DNA from: Candidatus Heimdallarchaeota archaeon B3_Heim
GTDB lineage: Archaea > Asgardarchaeota > Heimdallarchaeia > Hodarchaeales > Hodarchaeaceae
Direction of reading: 5' to 3'
Length of the DNA stretch: 32,000 nucleotides
Assembly: GCA_003144275.1 (NCBI GenBank)
Contig: NJBF01000009.1
Location: 7,653-39,652 of the forward strand
This document shows positions 1,497-28,840 of this stretch, piece by piece. The first letter of the stretch is position 1. Every line of letters starts with the position of its first letter. The translations under genes and the position numbers were made by a program. The notes beneath the pieces are model-generated. The model worked only from the letters and a program-made list of their open reading frames with translations, was not told the DNA's origin and searched no databases.

Positions 1497-1571
1497 TGGA
1501 CCGGACGGGATTTGAACCCGTGACCTCCTGATTGCCAACCAGGCGCAACTACCAGGCTGTGCCACCGGCCC
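1497..1571 (-). tRNA. tRNA-Ala(GGC), no encoded CCA, no intron
   Basis: Reverse complement is GGGCCGGTGGCACAGCCTGGTAGTTGCGCCTGGTTGGCAATCAGGAGGTCACGGGTTCAAATCCCGTCCGGTCCA. Acceptor stem GGGCCGG/CCGGTCC has the G3:U70 Ala determinant, the anticodon loop is TT-GGC-AA and the T-loop is GGTTCAAATCC. Confidence 0.97.
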
Positions 1572-2779: not shown

Positions 2780-3928
2780 ATGGTACAATCACTAGAAAAC
2801 CCCCAAACAAAGCTAATGACGGGTGCTGAAGCTGTAGCGACAGCTGCAAAACTTTCGCGACCCCAAGTCATAGCAGCATATCCTATTACTCCACAGACAA
2901 AAATTGTAGAGACATTATCAGGAATGGTTGCCCGTGGAGAGATGGATACAGAATATATCAACGTGGAAAGTGAACACAGTGCTATGGGTGCCGTAATTGG
3001 TGCATCGCTGGCTGGGACACGGACTTTTACAGCCACTAGTTCACATGGTCTTCTGTATATGGGAGAATTAGTCTGGTGGGCCGGAATGACAAGAATACCT
3101 GTTGTCATGCCTGTAGTCAATCGTTCTCTAAATCCTTGGAACATATGGCCAGATCATCAAGATGCAATGACCTTTCGAGATGCAGGGTGGATACAATTCT
3201 ACGCAAAAAATAATCAAGAGGTTTTAGATCTCACGATTTGTGCATTTAAAATTGCAGAGCATCATAAAATCTGGATGCCTGTTATGGTATGTTTAGATGG
3301 CTTTATCTTAAGTCATACTTCAGCACAAGTAGAAGTCCCATCCCAAAAAAAGGTTGATAATTTTCTTCCTCCTTTTGAACCGTTAGCTATGTTAGATCCC
3401 GATAACCCTTTCGCTCATGGTTCATTAACTGATTCAGAAGGAATCTGGGAACAACGAATGTCCCTAATTGATGGCTTTAACAATGCACATGTTCTCATAC
3501 CTCAGATTTTCACTGAGTACACTGAGAAGATAGGAAGACTTGGAAATTATCTGATAGAAGTAACAGGTGACATTGAACATGCAGAATGTGCGGTCATAGC
3601 ATTAGGTACTTTGGGAGAAGAAGCAGAGCAAACTGTAGAATATTTATTGGAAAAAAATATCAAAGCTGTAGTTTTAAGGCCTAGAGTGTTTCGACCATTC
3701 CCTAAAAAGGAATTAATAGTGCTCATAAACAAAGTTCCTCGATTACTAGTTATAGACCGTGCAGTTTCATTTGGAAACGCTGGACAATTAGCTATTGAAA
3801 TCCAAGCAGAATTATTCGCTCATAAAGTCGAGGTAAAATTTCACCAAAAGATAATGGGTTTAGGAGGGATGGATGTCAACTACGTGGATATCGCAACGGA
3901 GATTGAAAGAGTACTTAAGGAGGATTAA
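2780..3928 (+). CDS. porA: 2-oxoacid:ferredoxin oxidoreductase alpha subunit
   Basis: GAEAVA, AYPITPQT, ESEHSA, TATSSHGLLYM and DGFILSHT motifs. The ATG at 2780 is the likely start; the ORF-track start at 2690 overlaps the delta gene. Confidence 0.94.
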   Translation: MVQSLENPQTKLMTGAEAVATAAKLSRPQVIAAYPITPQTKIVETLSGMVARGEMDTEYINVESEHSAMGAVIGASLAGTRTFTATSSHGLLYMGELVWWAGMTRIPVVMPVVNRSLNPWNIWPDHQDAMTFRDAGWIQFYAKNNQEVLDLTICAFKIAEHHKIWMPVMVCLDGFILSHTSAQVEVPSQKKVDNFLPPFEPLAMLDPDNPFAHGSLTDSEGIWEQRMSLIDGFNNAHVLIPQIFTEYTEKIGRLGNYLIEVTGDIEHAECAVIALGTLGEEAEQTVEYLLEKNIKAVVLRPRVFRPFPKKELIVLINKVPRLLVIDRAVSFGNAGQLAIEIQAELFAHKVEVKFHQKIMGLGGMDVNYVDIATEIERVLKED

Positions 3929-3931
3929 TTT

Positions 3932-4819
3932 ATGAAAGCAAAAATCACAGAAATGATGGAACGACCTAATGTCTTATTAAGAGGGAATTTTGCGTGTGCT
4001 GGATGTGGACTTTCCATCGCTTATCGAACTTCAATATCAGCATTGGATCGTCCCATTGTAGTTATTCCTGCGTGTTGTTCTTCTGTAATCCAAAGCCTTC
4101 ATCCCAATGTTGCTTTTAATGTACCTACGCTAAATATTGCCTTTGCAGCGCATGCCTCTGCAGCTTCAGGAATTGCTCGGGCTAAAAAAATGAGAGGTGA
4201 GGAGGTAACAACGGTTGTTTGGTCAGGGGATGGCGGTACATATGATATTGGACTGGCGACATGGTCAGGGGCTGCAGAAAGGAATGAAAACATCATTCAT
4301 TTTTGCTATGATAATAATTTTTATTCGAATACAGGAGCTCAACGGAGTGGAGCAACCCCTCGTGGAGCGGTGACTACTACTACTCCTGAAGGCAAAAAGG
4401 AAAAACGAAAAAGTATCACGCGCATCATGGCAGCACATGATATTCCATATATAGCTACTGCCTCAATTGGTTATCCAAGAGACTTGTATGCCAAAGTAAA
4501 AAAGGCATCAACAATTGAGGGATATAGGTTTATTTTAATCGATGCCCCTTGTCCAACAGGATGGCTCTCCGATCCTGCAATCACCCCAGAATTAGGGGAA
4601 TTAGCAGTAAAGACGGGGTATTTCCCACTTTATGAGATCGAGAATGGAAATCTTATTTTCAGTAGAAAAGGAGAAAAATATCGAGATCCAGAAAATCGAG
4701 TACCTCTAGAGGAATATTTGAGTAAACAAAATCGTTTTAAGAAAATGACTCCCTCTCAGATTGTAGAAGTGAAGAAAGATATTCAACATGAATGGGATCA
4801 GCTGGTACGGTTAGAGTAG
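3932..4819 (+). CDS. porB: 2-oxoacid:ferredoxin oxidoreductase beta subunit (TPP-binding)
   Basis: ACAGCG, the GDGG...YDNN TPP motif, NTGAQRS and PCPTGW. Substrate (pyruvate vs branched-chain) cannot be fixed from motifs. Confidence 0.94.
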   Translation: MKAKITEMMERPNVLLRGNFACAGCGLSIAYRTSISALDRPIVVIPACCSSVIQSLHPNVAFNVPTLNIAFAAHASAASGIARAKKMRGEEVTTVVWSGDGGTYDIGLATWSGAAERNENIIHFCYDNNFYSNTGAQRSGATPRGAVTTTTPEGKKEKRKSITRIMAAHDIPYIATASIGYPRDLYAKVKKASTIEGYRFILIDAPCPTGWLSDPAITPELGELAVKTGYFPLYEIENGNLIFSRKGEKYRDPENRVPLEEYLSKQNRFKKMTPSQIVEVKKDIQHEWDQLVRLE

Positions 4820-11229: not shown

Positions 11230-11588
11230 CATAATCATTTTTGTCCGACAAGGCAATATTTCTCGTATTCGCAGCCCTCTCTCTCACAATCTTAAAAGGC
11301 CTCCCTCCCTTACTTCTTCAACCCCGAGGTGATGACAAAAAAATATACATAATTCTTAGGTCATATTCCCTTGTAACTACGTTAGACGAGTTACCCGTCA
11401 AAGGCAAGAGAAGAATGGCCCAATCTGGTGGAAATTCTGAAGTGTTTGGGAAATCGCAAGAAGATCTGATTCAAGTAATCCCAATGGATAGCATACATTC
11501 TCTTGTTGCTAACCTGCCGGATAGCGGATGTGTGACTCATCCAGTCCAGAACTATTCTCTAAATAGTTGTCTGACAAATTTAGTCATG
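11230..11588 (+). mobile_element. 359-bp non-autonomous miniature relative (MITE-like, copy A) of the TnpB element at 27158-28568
   Basis: Left end 11230-11251 is 18/22 identical to 27158-27179. Right end 11567-11588 is 20/22 identical to 28547-28568. Internal 11370-11405 is 30/36 identical to tnpB 27904-27939, and 11516-11546 is 29/31 identical to 28488-28518. Confidence 0.85.
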
Positions 11589-12379: not shown

Positions 12380-13243
12380 CTACAGTGGTTCATAGGTTAC
12401 CGATAGGCTTTCTATTGCTAAAATGCTTCCATTATCATCATCAGACAATGTAACAAAAATTAAATAAGGTTCTCCGGGATTAGTCAATTCGGATGAATTC
12501 AATTGGAAAAGATCCTCCTGAAAAGTGGTTGATTCGAACCCTTCCAATGTAAAGATATGTGAACTTCTGTTAATACTATTCAGTATGAAGAATAATCCGC
12601 TTGAGGAAGCTACAGAAAAATCTAACCGCAAATTCATATCCATACTTCCATTATTACTCAAAGAAAAGTTCATCGTTAGCCCTTCCTGACCAAAAGTTTG
12701 TGAGGGATTTAATGAAACCAGAGTAGTTGGTCCATAGGTGTCTCCAATGGTTAATACATCAGAGCTGAATGTTTTTGCGGATCTAGAGCTTGTTTTTCCT
12801 TGCGGAAACACAGTAACTTCAATAAAAATTGTGTCATTCCCAGGAATTAATTCATTCTGATCGATCGTGTTATCGCATGTGAGAGAAATTGTTTCAATGG
12901 CTAAACCTGGCAAGAGTATTTTCGATTGATCCATATACCAACCTGGAATTGGGGTTTTATCGAAATAAAGAAGTGAAAATGCATCAGCAGATATTTCAAC
13001 GTTTGTTCTTTCGGTATTCTGCAAAGTTATATCAAATCTATCAACTTTGATATCACTATCAGTGGTTTCAAAAGAAGAGATGGCTATAACTTCAACACCT
13101 AAAGGATCAGGAGTATTAATGGTACCAAACATCACTAAGGCGACTCCTAATCCAGCAACTACTACAAGTCCAATTAAAAGAACAGTGGCAATTACAGGAC
13201 TAATTCCTCTTTTTGTTTTTTTAGTAATAAGCCAATTCTTCAT
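12380..13243 (-). CDS. Archaeal type IV pilin-like protein (class III signal peptide) with beta-rich extracellular domains
   Basis: KKTKRG|ISPVIATVLLIGLVVVAG prepilin-peptidase motif and hydrophobic helix. The ATG at 13243 is preferred. Confidence 0.85.
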   Translation of the reverse strand: MKNWLITKKTKRGISPVIATVLLIGLVVVAGLGVALVMFGTINTPDPLGVEVIAISSFETTDSDIKVDRFDITLQNTERTNVEISADAFSLLYFDKTPIPGWYMDQSKILLPGLAIETISLTCDNTIDQNELIPGNDTIFIEVTVFPQGKTSSRSAKTFSSDVLTIGDTYGPTTLVSLNPSQTFGQEGLTMNFSLSNNGSMDMNLRLDFSVASSSGLFFILNSINRSSHIFTLEGFESTTFQEDLFQLNSSELTNPGEPYLIFVTLSDDDNGSILAIESLSVTYEPL

Positions 13244-21217: not shown

Positions 21218-21455
21218 TTTATAGGCTCCTATCTGCGAAATAATAGATTAAATCTGAATGGATATTGGGTATGAGATGAAGAACTAGATATAATTAGGCC
21301 ATAAATAACCATTTTTTTAAAGAATTCGATATCCAATATCAATGGAATTAGCGGTGGAATTTCGTAGAATTGCATTATATTGGTTAACTAAATTAATGAT
21401 TCATAAATTTCTGATTGTTTGGATCAAGAATTATAAGCGTTTCTGGAATCACTCC

Positions 21456-21675
21456 CTCGTAACTGCGTTAGACGAGTTACCAGTCAAAAGCGAAGGGGGT
21501 AAAGCCAGTGGTTTTTGAAAATCGAGAAATCAAGCAAGAATGCCACTCCTATAGTAACAAGAAGTCCCTCGAAAACTAATTCTTCAGTCGAATTGGTTTT
21601 TTCCGGAATAGCAGACCCGTGACTCATCCTGTCCAGAACGAGGTTTTGTTGCTTTGTATGACAAATATAGTCATG
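21456..21675 (+). mobile_element. Second miniature TnpB-element relative (copy B); right end intact, left end not recognisable
   Basis: 21456-21491 is 32/36 identical to copy A and 28/36 to tnpB. It carries GTGACTCATCCTGTCCAGAAC at 21619, and its right end 21654-21675 is 19/22 identical to 28547-28568. Confidence 0.75.
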
Positions 21676-26863: not shown

Positions 26864-27157
26864 GCATAAGCCTCCGAATTTTTTCTCTATCTCTTTAATG
26901 TATATTTTGATTGAGGAATCGTGATTAATTCATATTAGAAATTCAATAGAAACGTTTTTTCAATCAAGTAACGAAAAAATGGTTCGATTCTTTTAAATCT
27001 GTGCAAATCATAGAAGTTCATTTTTAACTTCCCTCAATGAATTCGTAAAAAGAGAGGAATTACTAATTTAAATTAGCGGTTCAATGGGTTACATATTTAA
27101 AATTCGTTCTATTTAGAAGAGAGAGAGTTGACACTATTTTAAAATGTAATTTGAATA

Positions 27158-28568
27158 CATGATCAAATTTGTCGGACAAGTAAAAAAATTGAGGTTGAAA
27201 AAAGGCAAGTCATTTTCGTTTTCGGGGACCTCTCTCTGGTACAAGGTTAAATACAAGAAAAACAGTCCAATAAATGGGAATGCGAGCCAAAAAACAGACA
27301 CACCCACAACTGACAATAAGAATCCAAATGAAATCAAAGCCCATTTTTGTGGATTTGTGTACACGAGCCAAAAACTTGTATAATAGAGCTACCTACCAGG
27401 TGCGACAAGAATTTTTTGCCACAGGAAACTGGTTGCAGTATACAACTCTTTATCATCAACTAAAGCATGAACCAGTCTATTTGGCACTAAAAGAAATCTC
27501 TGATAGCTATCTCCCTCAACAAGTCCTCCGCCAGGTGGAACAAACCTGGAGAAGTTATTTTAATGCAATGAAAGTCTGGAAAAAAGAACCCAGTAAGTTT
27601 CTTGGTCAGCCTCGTCTTCCAGGCTATAAAGCAAAAAATGGCCTTCATGTGCTTAGCTTTCCACGACCCCGTGTCCGAATCCGAGGAACAGAGGTATTAT
27701 TTGCACGGAATTTAATGGCTCGTGGATTTCCCTCGTTTCCAGTGGGAAATCTCCCTGTTTCTAGAAAAACCTGTACGGGTGCTAGATTAGTGCCGTTTTA
27801 TGATCGATTTGTGGTTGAAATTCTGTATGAAACCGAAGTAAAGTCGTTATCCTCATTTAAAGAATCACCTAGAGCTATTGGTATAGATCTTGGGATTACT
27901 AACCTCGTAGCTACGTCAGACGGCTTACTCGTCAAAGGCGGGGTGGTAAAAACCGTCAATCAATGGTACAACAAGCAATTAGCCTATTTTAAATCACTCG
28001 CAAAAAAACACAATCAACAACATAATACACGTCGAATGCAACGGATGCATCGTGTCCGCGCAAATAAGATCAGTGATTATTTCCATCAAACCTCTCGAAC
28101 AATTATTAATCACTGTTTACAGAAAAATATTCACACCCTTGTTGTTGGCTATAATTCCTTTTGGAAACAGCATTGTAATTTGGGAAAACGAACAAACCAA
28201 TCATTCGTCCAAATACCCTTTTTTAAATTACTTCATATGCTTGAATATAAAGCTAAATTAGTGGGTATATCCGTTATTCGTGTCTCAGAAGCATATACTT
28301 CTCAACAGTGTAGTGATTGTGGTATAATTGATAAATGTAACCGAAGATCGCGAGGATTGTACCATTGTCGTTCCTGTGGCCTTCGTCTTAACGCCGATCA
28401 CAATGCCGCCATTAATATTCTTCAGCGTTCATCTCTTGATAAACAAGTAGTCCCTTCGGTCAGTTCAAGCTCTATTTGTTCTGATCAGCCGGATAGGGGA
28501 TGTGTGACTCATCCTGTCGTGACTCAAAAAGTTTAGTATTCTTTTTTTGTCCGACAAATCTAGTCATG
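27158..28568 (+). mobile_element. 1411-bp solo-TnpB insertion element (IS200/IS605 superfamily, IS1341-like organisation; no tnpA)
   Basis: A single tnpB ORF bounded by 23-bp imperfect inverted ends: 27157-27179 versus the reverse complement of 28547-28569, 20/23 identical. Boundaries are supported by where homology to copies A and B stops. Confidence 0.85.
27274..28536 (+). CDS. tnpB: TnpB RNA-guided endonuclease with rearranged RuvC-II site
   Basis: N-terminal OrfB HTH (KNLYN...), RuvC-I AIGIDLG, VVGYN..WKQ in place of the canonical E, alternative E in RVSEAYTS, CSDC/CRSC zinc finger and RuvC-III NADHNAAINI. Confidence 0.96.
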   Translation: MGMRAKKQTHPQLTIRIQMKSKPIFVDLCTRAKNLYNRATYQVRQEFFATGNWLQYTTLYHQLKHEPVYLALKEISDSYLPQQVLRQVEQTWRSYFNAMKVWKKEPSKFLGQPRLPGYKAKNGLHVLSFPRPRVRIRGTEVLFARNLMARGFPSFPVGNLPVSRKTCTGARLVPFYDRFVVEILYETEVKSLSSFKESPRAIGIDLGITNLVATSDGLLVKGGVVKTVNQWYNKQLAYFKSLAKKHNQQHNTRRMQRMHRVRANKISDYFHQTSRTIINHCLQKNIHTLVVGYNSFWKQHCNLGKRTNQSFVQIPFFKLLHMLEYKAKLVGISVIRVSEAYTSQQCSDCGIIDKCNRRSRGLYHCRSCGLRLNADHNAAINILQRSSLDKQVVPSVSSSSICSDQPDRGCVTHPVVTQKV

Positions 28569-28840
28569 TTCTAAACTACTGATATAAAATTTGTTGTGTG
28601 TAGTTATTTGAATCAGAAGAAAGTTGTATCGTTATTTACACTATATGAATAGTAAGAAAAAGTGATTTAACAAAAAATACGTGAACTTATTTAGAAAGAG
28701 ACACTTACAAAATTCAGAAGCATTAATAATATGGATTTTACCCCTTTTAGCTAGAAACTTATCGGTTTTCATTTCAATTAAATCAATTCTATAAGAAGAA
28801 TATTTAAGCCTTCACAGATCTAGAGAGGAGAAATACTAAT

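Follow-up and report, generated by a model that had tools for sequence, protein, structure and literature searches.

A solo tnpB element with symmetric ends at CATG sites in a Hodarchaeales archaeon

We describe a tnpB element from a Hodarchaeales (Asgard) archaeon whose two ends are inverted versions of each other and whose cargo is TnpB and a guide-RNA region and nothing else. It spans 1411 bp from CATG to CATG, positions 27158-28568 of the window, the whole 32,000-nucleotide stretch of DNA that was analysed (Table 1). The locus is a non-autonomous, tnpB-only insertion sequence of IS1341-type gene content with a guide-RNA module, an unusual variant of an element type that is already known and not a new type. 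Tentatively, at somewhat less than even chances, we favor a model wherein it is moved in trans by a recombinase of double-stranded DNA, most likely an IS607-like serine transposase. Cas12 and the eukaryotic Fanzors descend from TnpB elements, and the Hodarchaeales are the archaeal order nearest to eukaryotes.

Table 1. Features of the element and of related copies, in window coordinates
Feature	Position	Strand	Description
Left end	27158..27179	+	CATG 27158-27161, 7-nt linker ATCAAAT, 11-bp palindrome TTGTCGGACAA 27169-27179
Leader from left end to tnpB	27180..27273	+	Conserved CTCTCTCT block; presumed promoter and ribosome-binding region
tnpB	27274..28536	+	420 aa, intact
Predicted omegaRNA scaffold	28444..28568	+	Overlaps the 3' end of tnpB and reaches the right end
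Right end	28547..28568	+	Palindrome TTGTCCGACAA 28547-28557, linker ATCTAGT, CATG 28565-28568
Flank, would-be omegaRNA guide	28569..28588	+	Putative, by analogy with characterized TnpB systems; 20-nt length assumed
Gene-less MITE of the same family	11230..11588	+	359 bp; left end (CATAATCATTT and palindrome), scaffold and right end kept
Decayed 5'-truncated copy	21453..21675	+	Right end only (TTGTATGACAAATATAGTCATG)

The nuclease and its predicted guide RNA

The TnpB is an intact protein of the alternative-glutamate RuvC type, with the D-E-D triad and the TNB domain. It matches the Pfam profiles OrfB_IS605 (PF01385, 3.3e-22) and Cas12f1-like_TNB (PF07282, 3.4e-23) above cut-off, and its RuvC residues are D205, E339 (the alternative glutamate, located six residues ahead of the first CxxC) and D375, together with a C4 zinc finger. 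These three acidic residues and the four cysteines are invariant or nearly so in 21 relatives. RuvC1 reads D-L-G, not DPG (alternative-glutamate RuvC and DPG fingerprint as defined in PMC10711439). In residue comparison only, the glutamate six residues before the zinc finger is a likeness to Fanzor2 and pro-Fanzor proteins, and for some Fanzor2s the host transposon has terminal inverted repeats and target duplications (Yoon et al. 2023, NAR, PMC10711439); the element here differs from them in having D-L-G in place of the DPG fingerprint and in its host, which is an archaeon and not a cyanobacterium or eukaryote.

The TnpB lineage appears to be IS607-linked rather than DDE-linked. Evidence for the IS607 link comes from the alternative glutamate and from the nearest transposase-linked relative, the TnpB of a tnpA(serine)-tnpB element in G013:C54 (38% identity, E = 1e-83). 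With the Y1-linked TnpBs of the genus, identity falls to 27%, and the neighborhoods of TnpBs 41-57% identical to ours are all solo.

The predicted omegaRNA scaffold is kept in all MITE derivatives, with blocks conserved at the DNA level. Its consensus fold shows compensatory changes in the last stem, which occurs at the right end only and has no left-end counterpart, and folding of 28480-28568 with DNA parameters gives z = -2.28. A candidate pseudoknot would pair GUGACU with AGUCAU. A search of the window against Rfam returned only a tRNA and no match for the scaffold. The right end, palindrome and linker alike, lies inside this predicted scaffold, which is what would be expected if the ends were not transposase sites at all, the right end being kept only as guide RNA and the likeness of the left end being fortuitous or due to gene conversion. 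The left end, however, is outside the predicted RNA, and yet the same 22 nt recur in about 30 copies across three genomes. Gene-less derivatives also keep both ends exactly, and insertions and empty sites that are base-exact at both ends contradict this explanation, to which we give hardly any credence.

The ends and the family that they define

Each end consists of CATG, 7 nt and an 11-bp palindrome, TTGTC-N-GACAA (CATG-N7-TTGTCNGACAA), and the two ends are inverted to each other. The 20/23 similarity given in the preliminary description for the left end (27157-27179, ACATGATCAAATTTGTCGGACAA) and the reverse-complemented right end (28547-28569, ACATGACTAGATTTGTCGGACAA) was confirmed, with the qualification that the outermost bases, A at 27157 and T at 28569, are flank; the ends of the element proper are 22-nt inverted sequences, with one palindrome each, that match at 19-20 of 22 positions. 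The mirrored CAT(G/A) reported outside the palindrome holds up as CATG in 27 left-end-type and in 31 of 38 right-end-type ends. The proposal of TTGT/ACAA arms around a variable 3-nt center has to be modified, since the conserved unit is instead the 11-bp palindrome, at which intact copies vary only in the central base; the ATG center listed among the five end copies belongs to the decayed, 5'-truncated copy. That the ends are symmetric, and so differ from textbook IS200/IS605 or IS607 ends, stands.

In the window, TTGTNNNACAA is found five times against 1.04 expected, a count reached in 1 of 100 shuffles, and all five occurrences (11241, 11567, 21654, 27169 and 28547) are at element ends. Across the whole genome, CATGANNANNTTTGTCNGACAA with at most one mismatch has 65 matches, versus 0 for the reversed control. 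The motif TGTCYGA presumably resembles resolvase half-sites, a likeness given no weight in the readings below.

The same ends bound six diverged full-length copies in the genome (67-70% identical at the protein level), some 12 MITEs, each near 360 bp long, and three solo forms of 33 bp. One MITE carries a right-end-type linker at its left end, and one solo form is left-end/left-end. The MITE in the window is 76-89% identical to other MITE subfamilies, and the members of one subfamily are 97.5-100% identical with different flanks at each copy. The guide-RNA-bearing MITEs spawned by the element have thus moved recently. An element without its own transposase must be mobilized in trans, as had been suggested; these near-identical gene-less copies support this, as does the 94-bp gap between left end and tnpB start, which is too short to leave room for a second gene.

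The end motif is carried by 6 of the 22 genomes in the genus and by none of 61 others in the class. A second ORF was sought in family members, and none was found with these ends: pairs of family ends in G000 enclose only tnpB, a MITE body or a host gene. The candidate composite at C8:61897-64531, where a left end and a solo form lie 2.6 kb apart, holds a host M48-like membrane protease and not a transposase. Metagenome contigs scanned for the left end gave five matches, comprising only MITEs, one solo form and doubtful matches.

Target site and empty alleles

Two base-exact empty alleles were found in public marine-sediment contigs (public runs X1 and X3, examined as assembled contigs). Each holds exactly one CATG, where filled sites have two. 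The empty-site joints, 3689 to 4048 and 12460 to 12819, each skip 358/362 bp with five shared letters, and between one of the contigs and the reference there are just 1 + 3 differing letters. A MITE inserted in a tnpB paralogue tells the same, as five intact paralogues have a single tetranucleotide at that site. For the window copy a base-exact empty site was not found, the syntenic intergenic regions of G018, G003 and G013 being too diverged near the insertion. Guide-RNA-only derivatives of the family are still polymorphic in wild populations.

The earlier statement that no target-site duplication is evident is therefore inaccurate, given one CATG in empty and two in filled sites. The CATG is not purely element sequence: its two outer bases are target-derived. 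At the outermost base, left ends can read TATG and right ends CATA, whereas the inner G and C do not change, and the base after the right-end CAT is restricted to G or A. As the outer base is variable, the inner one fixed and only one CATG present when the site is empty, a 4-bp duplication is excluded, and the pattern fits a central AT that is exchanged or duplicated. At the level of sequence, three mechanisms are indistinguishable here: AT exchange by a serine enzyme, a 2-bp AT duplication of the DDE type and Y1 cleavage after YAT. Insertion at a short motif without duplication, as in the IS1341 group, is also seen here and is compatible with IS607 and with a 2-bp duplication too.

The flanks of the two ends differ. 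Among curated G000 ends the left CATG is preceded by T in 0 of 20, and in an independent test with G013 and G031 in 1 of 20; right ends, read inward from the flank, have T at this position in 19 of 38 (G000) and 9 of 20 (G013 and G031).

The search for a mobilizing enzyme

We searched the three copy-rich genomes, G000, G013 and G031, which are metagenome-assembled and 84-94% complete (G000 94%, G031 84%). Mobile genes are often unassembled in such genomes, so that the absence of an enzyme is weak evidence.

The preliminary description had offered a small HUH-type hairpin end as one possibility, and an ordinary IS200/IS605 element of the IS1341 group would work in this way: a Y1 HUH TnpA supplied in trans would act on single-stranded DNA, inserting 3' of (Y)AT(G), with a right end closing in CAT(G) and the mini-palindromes serving as subterminal hairpins. 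A single CATG in empty sites without further duplication is compatible with peel-and-paste transposition, and the right-end stem with its compensatory changes might form in DNA as well as in RNA. Haloarchaeal IS605-type elements can have near-terminal palindromes identical at both ends, and core deletions reduce them to terminal-only forms of 52 bp (PMC3119063), comparable to our 33-bp solos. The IS1341 group and the haloarchaeal PATEs (Haloquadratum HqIRS, ISHwa23) resemble our family further in being tnpB-only, in their near-terminal palindromes, which are sometimes identical at both ends, in a short specific target without duplication, in gene-less derivatives and in core deletion to tiny terminal-only forms. 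However, no Y1 TnpA (PF01797) is present in the three copy-rich genomes, and the two Y1 genes of the genus are decayed and adjoin the 27%-identical TnpBs. The mini-palindrome is too short for a stable hairpin, forming as single-stranded DNA 4-5 bp at -1 to -2 kcal/mol (z 0.3 to -1.4), no better than shuffles, and no larger hairpin common to both ends was found, which weakens the hairpin proposal. The covarying stem of the right end lacks a left-end counterpart, the linkers are mirrored too, and one left end has a right-end-type linker; constraint on the target extends to both flanks of the insertion point, and a G or A after the right-end CAT is not required by a Y1 mechanism. The condition under which the preliminary description would have been refuted does not hold, since left ends do conserve CATG and the three copy-rich genomes yielded no Y1 TnpA. 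We regard Y1 mobilization as improbable.

Another candidate is a DDE cut-and-paste transposase acting in trans. Such an enzyme would recognize 22-nt terminal inverted repeats, target YATR and duplicate the central AT, the TnpB having been captured by a classical inverted-repeat transposon. IS630, which targets CTAG and duplicates TA, would provide a parallel. A 2-bp duplication agrees with the true inverted ends, the palindromic 4-bp target and the two outer bases that derive from the target. TnpB elements with inverted ends have also been published already (PMC10691335, PMC10711439), so that the earlier claim of an undescribed architecture is not upheld. All six DDE-associated TnpB branches are flanked by inverted terminal repeats, and solo TnpBs carry the ends of their transposase-bearing relatives (Altae-Tran et al. 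2023, PNAS, PMC10691335). These branches (e.g., the IS630-linked DDE-6) are thus like our element in combining a prokaryotic TnpB with symmetric ends, and their solo TnpBs imply mobilization in trans. They differ in that here no DDE partner with these ends was found and no IS630-type DDE_3 gene is present in G000, G013 or G031. The DDE insertion sequences of G000 (four repeat families and one IS3-like rve element) carry unrelated terminal repeats, the contents of the G000 end pairs offer no candidate, and the TnpB lineage points to IS607. A DDE enzyme is, in our estimation, an unlikely source of mobility.

No IS607-type serine TnpA accompanies tnpB within the element, and the searches of G000 and G031 found none; those of G013 (C54 and C56) adjoin TnpBs of other subfamilies. 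The sole resolvase-family gene of G000 has an N-terminal catalytic domain and a C-terminal HTH, as in an ordinary resolvase, and adjoins a reverse transcriptase. Among tyrosine recombinases, a XerA-like gene is present in all five genomes searched and others are scattered, with no correlation with element load. No Cas1 gene was found in the three copy-rich genomes.

The family has moved recently in genomes in which no candidate of the Y1, IS607-type serine, IS630 or Cas1 kinds turned up; the DDE/rve elements that did turn up have unrelated ends, and in the literature searched no family combines symmetric ends with a CATG target. These observations would suit an enzyme whose class has so far no link to TnpB, or has yet to be recognized as a transposase, and that reads the 11-bp palindrome and is encoded elsewhere or on an unassembled extrachromosomal element. 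Nothing positive favors any particular new enzyme, and in genomes this incomplete a missing gene is weak evidence. It is rather unlikely, in our view, that this TnpB family with its relocated RuvC glutamate uses such a class, recombining at CATG. In a weaker version, the family may be a new sub-type of IS607 in which the ends are symmetric and the core is AT.

A tentative model and its nearest relatives

We return to the model that we favor, mobilization by a double-strand recombinase, probably IS607-like, supplied in trans. That the substrate would be double-stranded is inferred from the perfect palindrome, its poor single-stranded hairpin, the right-type linker at a left end and the left/left solo form. 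The recombinase would bind TTGTC-N-GACAA as a dimer, one per end, with strand exchange at the AT in the middle of CATG, which lies 9 bp beyond the palindrome. Because exchange would be at this AT, excision would restore a single CATG, releasing a circle with a palindromic junction of about 40 bp. TnpB, loaded with an RNA ending at the right end and reading into the flank, would then cut the emptied donor sites, causing the element to be copied back. Since T almost never precedes the left CATG, yet the right end itself is T-CATG, we predict that the target-adjacent motif (TAM) is VCATG, by which the element's own right junction would be spared.

In the IS607 family, both junctions carry the same dinucleotide, a single copy of which is present in the donor joint, and the TAM overlaps the target motif; its published members have no terminal inverted repeats, but directly repeated motifs and a GG core (bioRxiv 10.1101/2023.11.20.567912; PMC6188088). 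Our element is like the family (IS607, IS1535, ISC1926 and the Clostridium botulinum IStron) in sharing a short sequence between both junctions, of which the scarless donor joint keeps one copy, and in lacking a long target duplication; tnpB with a predicted guide RNA at the right end, a relocated RuvC glutamate, inverted sequence near the ends and transposase-less copies are further likenesses. It differs in being without a serine TnpA in cis or in the assembly, in exchanging, on our model, at AT within CATG and not at GG, and in having a single palindrome equidistant from both tips in place of asymmetric direct-repeat arrays. The one IS607-type element of the genus that can be delimited, in G013:C54, shows the asymmetric IS607 pattern, with the junction GTGATA. 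These differences, along with the lack of an IS607-type TnpA in two of the three copy-rich genomes, stand against our preferred reading.

Implications

As it stands, the element is a well-characterized variant that establishes no new principle. The family nevertheless offers a clean natural case for the study of co-operation between nuclease and transposase, with ends defined to the base and a palindromic 4-bp target that is present once in the empty site. Its right end must serve a DNA-binding enzyme and a guide RNA alike, and the asymmetry of its flanks makes the predicted TAM testable. Were the enzyme indeed of a new class, this would be a prokaryotic TnpB in a true inverted-repeat transposon, as with Fanzors. 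Knowing the missing enzyme would reveal whether, in Asgard archaea, TnpB has a partnership with an inverted-repeat transposase similar to that of Fanzors.

Ends and distribution of the family

Both ends of the element read, from outside to inside, CATG, a 7-nt A/T-rich linker and an 11-bp palindrome, TTGTC-N-GACAA. The preliminary description reported a 20/23 match between the left end and the reverse-complemented right end, which is correct on direct reading, and five end copies in the window, which are explained by the element together with a gene-less copy and a 5'-truncated copy.

Coordinates of the element, its copies and the solo forms (G000, the window's own genome; C, contig; L, locus)
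Feature	Location	Size	Remarks
tnpB-only element	window 27158-28568	1411 bp	
tnpB, sole gene of element	window 27274-28536	420 aa	Pfam OrfB_IS605 and Cas12f1-like_TNB
Gene-less family copy	window 11230-11588	359 bp	
5'-truncated family copy	window 21453-21675		
Solo form	G000:C8:64499-64531	33 bp	
Solo form	G000:C35:1462-1494	33 bp	
Solo form	G000:C50:11147-11179	33 bp	
Solo form	L152:1114-1146	33 bp	
tRNA gene	window 1497-1571 (-)		sole Rfam match in window

In G000 (3.95 Mb, 103 contigs, 36% G+C, 94% complete), the end motif CATGANNANNTTTGTCNGACAA with at most one mismatch has 65 matches, versus 0 for the reversed control. Pairing of ends gave three solo forms, thirteen gene-less derivatives (MITEs; twelve of 359-365 bp and one of 146 bp) and five full-length elements with both ends (1411-1424 bp). 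At the protein level, identity among the six full-length copies is only 67-70%, yet the ends are present in all six. Within the genus, the motif occurs in 6/22 genomes and is abundant in three (G000, G013 and G031); it was found in 0/61 other genomes of the class. The host is assigned to Candidatus Hodarchaeales (Asgard archaea) by the names of matching proteins at 66-82% identity.

In the solo forms, one palindrome stands between a left and a right linker, with CATG at either tip; one solo is left/left. Their structure resembles the outcome of a core deletion between both palindromes, in which case they would resemble the 52-bp terminal-only PATEs described in Haloquadratum (PMC3119063), but they could equally have arisen by site-specific recombination between palindromes. 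At G000:C82:62600-62640, a MITE right end meets ATCAAATTTGAT... via a common CATG. It looks as if the MITE had inserted at a CATG belonging to a different left end, itself decayed, or as if a joined-ends form had left a relic here. A relative 55% identical (L134:2850-3000 and 4330-4350) has the 10-nt CATAGTCTGT at its left tip and directly after its right end and, in place of the left linker, a stretch that exactly matches the start of the presumed guide.

Empty sites and the CATG target

Three independent comparisons show a single CATG kept in empty sites, so that insertion adds the element's own length minus 4 and leaves CATG on both sides. One MITE (G000:C88:109509-109868) sits within a tnpB paralogue, and its site is one tetranucleotide (CATA, CACA and similar) in five intact paralogues versus CATG...CAGG when filled. 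The site of a second MITE, at C67:12462, reads tttCAT|c in the closest related genome. The decisive comparison is with public marine-sediment contigs, which align to G000:C67 with joints 3689->4048 and 12460->12819, each omitting 358 of a MITE's 362 bp with 5 letters shared at the joint; apart from 1 + 3 letters, one of these contigs matches the reference. Filled alleles in the G000 assembly and empty alleles in contigs of public sediment runs both exist, and five MITEs that are 97.5-100% identical have different flanks at each location; the family has been mobile recently.

The outermost base of the tetranucleotide varies, some left ends having TATG and some right ends CATA, while the inner G on the left and inner C on the right are essentially fixed, indicating that G...C belongs to the element and Y...R comes from the target. 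A 4-bp direct duplication was rejected because it would give two identical tetranucleotide copies, and the copies differ. Judged from these alignments, there are three candidate roles for the central AT: core of a recombination, product of a 2-bp duplication, or component of the motif at which a Y1 enzyme cleaves.

Which enzyme moves the family

That a single-strand Y1 mechanism moves the family is improbable. The sole sequence common to both ends is a perfect palindrome with arms of 4-5 bp, which is no more stable than shuffled sequence when folded as ssDNA (-1 to -2 kcal/mol), and a larger stem with compensatory changes is confined to the right end. The base after the right CAT is restricted to G or A. 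The left end of one MITE carries a linker of the right-end type, which together with the left/left solo form suggests that the ends may be interchangeable. Y1 TnpA was not found in G000, G013 or G031; the only Y1 genes found in the genus's 22 genomes belong to decayed IS605-type pairs (L098, G018:C178; L099, G012:C99), in which a tnpA with an in-frame stop or truncation lies divergent from a 380-aa tnpB.

The protein points towards a serine enzyme similar to that of IS607. In TnpB, the glutamate is E339, six residues ahead of the first CxxC, and G-Y-N occupies the canonical position; a RuvC glutamate relocated in this way is the Ealt arrangement defined by Yoon et al. (PMC10711439). The nearest transposase-linked relative is a tnpA(serine)-tnpB pair on G013:C54 (38% identity over the full length), whereas the genus's Y1-linked TnpBs are only 27% identical. 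IS607 elements share the core logic: the two junctions carry an identical dinucleotide, donor joints are scarless, and the target-adjacent motif (TAM) overlaps the target motif (bioRxiv 10.1101/2023.11.20.567912; PMC6188088 for the core logic), and Chen et al. noted an imperfect inverted repeat near their ends (PMC6188088). However, published descriptions give IS607 a GG core and asymmetric ends that carry direct repeats (bioRxiv 10.1101/2023.11.20.567912; PMC6188088). The family's ends are symmetric and its core would be AT, so it could belong to IS607 at most as a variant that differs in both respects. The asymmetric direct-repeat pattern was confirmed for the IS607-type element of G013:C54, whose exact limits follow from comparison with its empty site in G000:C14 (around 21585). 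That element (L120, G013:C54:5509-8919) is complete at ~1.92 kb, with a serine tnpA of 195 aa and a tnpB of 402 aa; GTGATA is common to both junctions, CATTTGATA-like motifs are repeated in both ends, and the right end includes ATGACTACATTTG, similar to the ends of the window family.

A DDE enzyme producing a 2-bp AT duplication is possible, with a precedent in DDE-linked TnpB branches that have inverted repeats (PMC10691335). The DDE and rve insertion sequences of G000 have terminal repeats unrelated to the family ends, and neither Cas1 nor an IS630-type DDE was found in G000, G013 or G031. G000 has a single gene of the resolvase family, which encodes an ordinary resolvase and adjoins a reverse transcriptase; this locus (L001, G000:C2:5532-7731), with a bacterial-type resolvase/invertase of 183 aa beside a 416-aa reverse-transcriptase-like ORF, is possibly retron-like or involved in defence. 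All TnpB relatives 41-57% identical are solo genes, and a left-end scan of metagenome contigs returned MITEs and one solo form only. The search had the same outcome in all three genomes, but absence of a transposase is weak evidence because these are metagenome-assembled.

Comparison with known elements

Single features have published precedents. IS1341-type elements and PATEs have the same gene content and derivatives (PMC3119063), and DDE-linked TnpBs (PMC10691335) and some Fanzor2 transposons (PMC10711439) likewise have symmetric ends. In the literature searched, no element was found to combine an Ealt TnpB of Hodarchaeales, 22-nt inverted ends based on an 11-bp palindrome, insertion at CATG with central AT, and genomes lacking a transposase. 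G000 itself offers an internal contrast, a second tnpB-only family with asymmetric ends (L116; 1.66 kb; G000:C38:57938-59597 and no fewer than 7 further sites; copies 80-90% identical). The TnpB of this second family shares 24% identity with that of the window element and includes an HTH_OrfB_IS605 domain.

Flanks, guide RNA and MITEs

Despite the palindromic target core, the flanks are asymmetric. T precedes the left CATG in 0/20 curated G000 ends and in 1/20 of an independent G013 and G031 set (binomial P ~0.005 for the latter alone, at 32% T; our calculation). At right ends, read from outside to inside, T is the commonest base (19/38, and 9/20 in G013 and G031). We infer that TnpB may recognize VCATG, with which it would cut emptied donor joints and, since the right end reads ...AGT-CATG, spare the element's own right junction.

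In the consensus fold predicted from the final 150 nt of 14 distinct copies, the palindrome's right half (GACA) and centre pair with an upstream UGUC-AGA in a long stem, enclosing a hairpin AAC-NNNN...NNNN-GUU whose inner pairs are compensatory (A-U in 6 copies, C-G in 6). The preceding hairpin has a loop, GUGACU, complementary to the terminal AGUCAU, so that a pseudoknot next to the guide is possible; both sequences are invariant and hence give no covariation support, and a pseudoknot at the corresponding position is known in other TnpB RNAs (PMC10711439). According to this fold, the right end would have two roles, as element end and as part of the predicted guide RNA. A conserved C-terminal peptide, D-(S/R)-G-C-V-T-H-P-V (window 28493-28524, residues about 407-416), has codons overlapping the predicted guide-RNA hairpin GGATG-TGTGACT-CATCC, which looks like dual coding. 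A block with hairpin potential, GTAACTACGTTAGACGAGTTAC, that derives from RuvC-I coding sequence (window 27901-27939, and 11367-11405 in the window's MITE) is kept in every MITE subfamily, even at 63% identity, and is better conserved than its surroundings, which suggests an RNA role rather than leftover coding sequence. MITEs retain the entire predicted guide-RNA module, which would make them guide-RNA-bearing parasites of the full-length copies.
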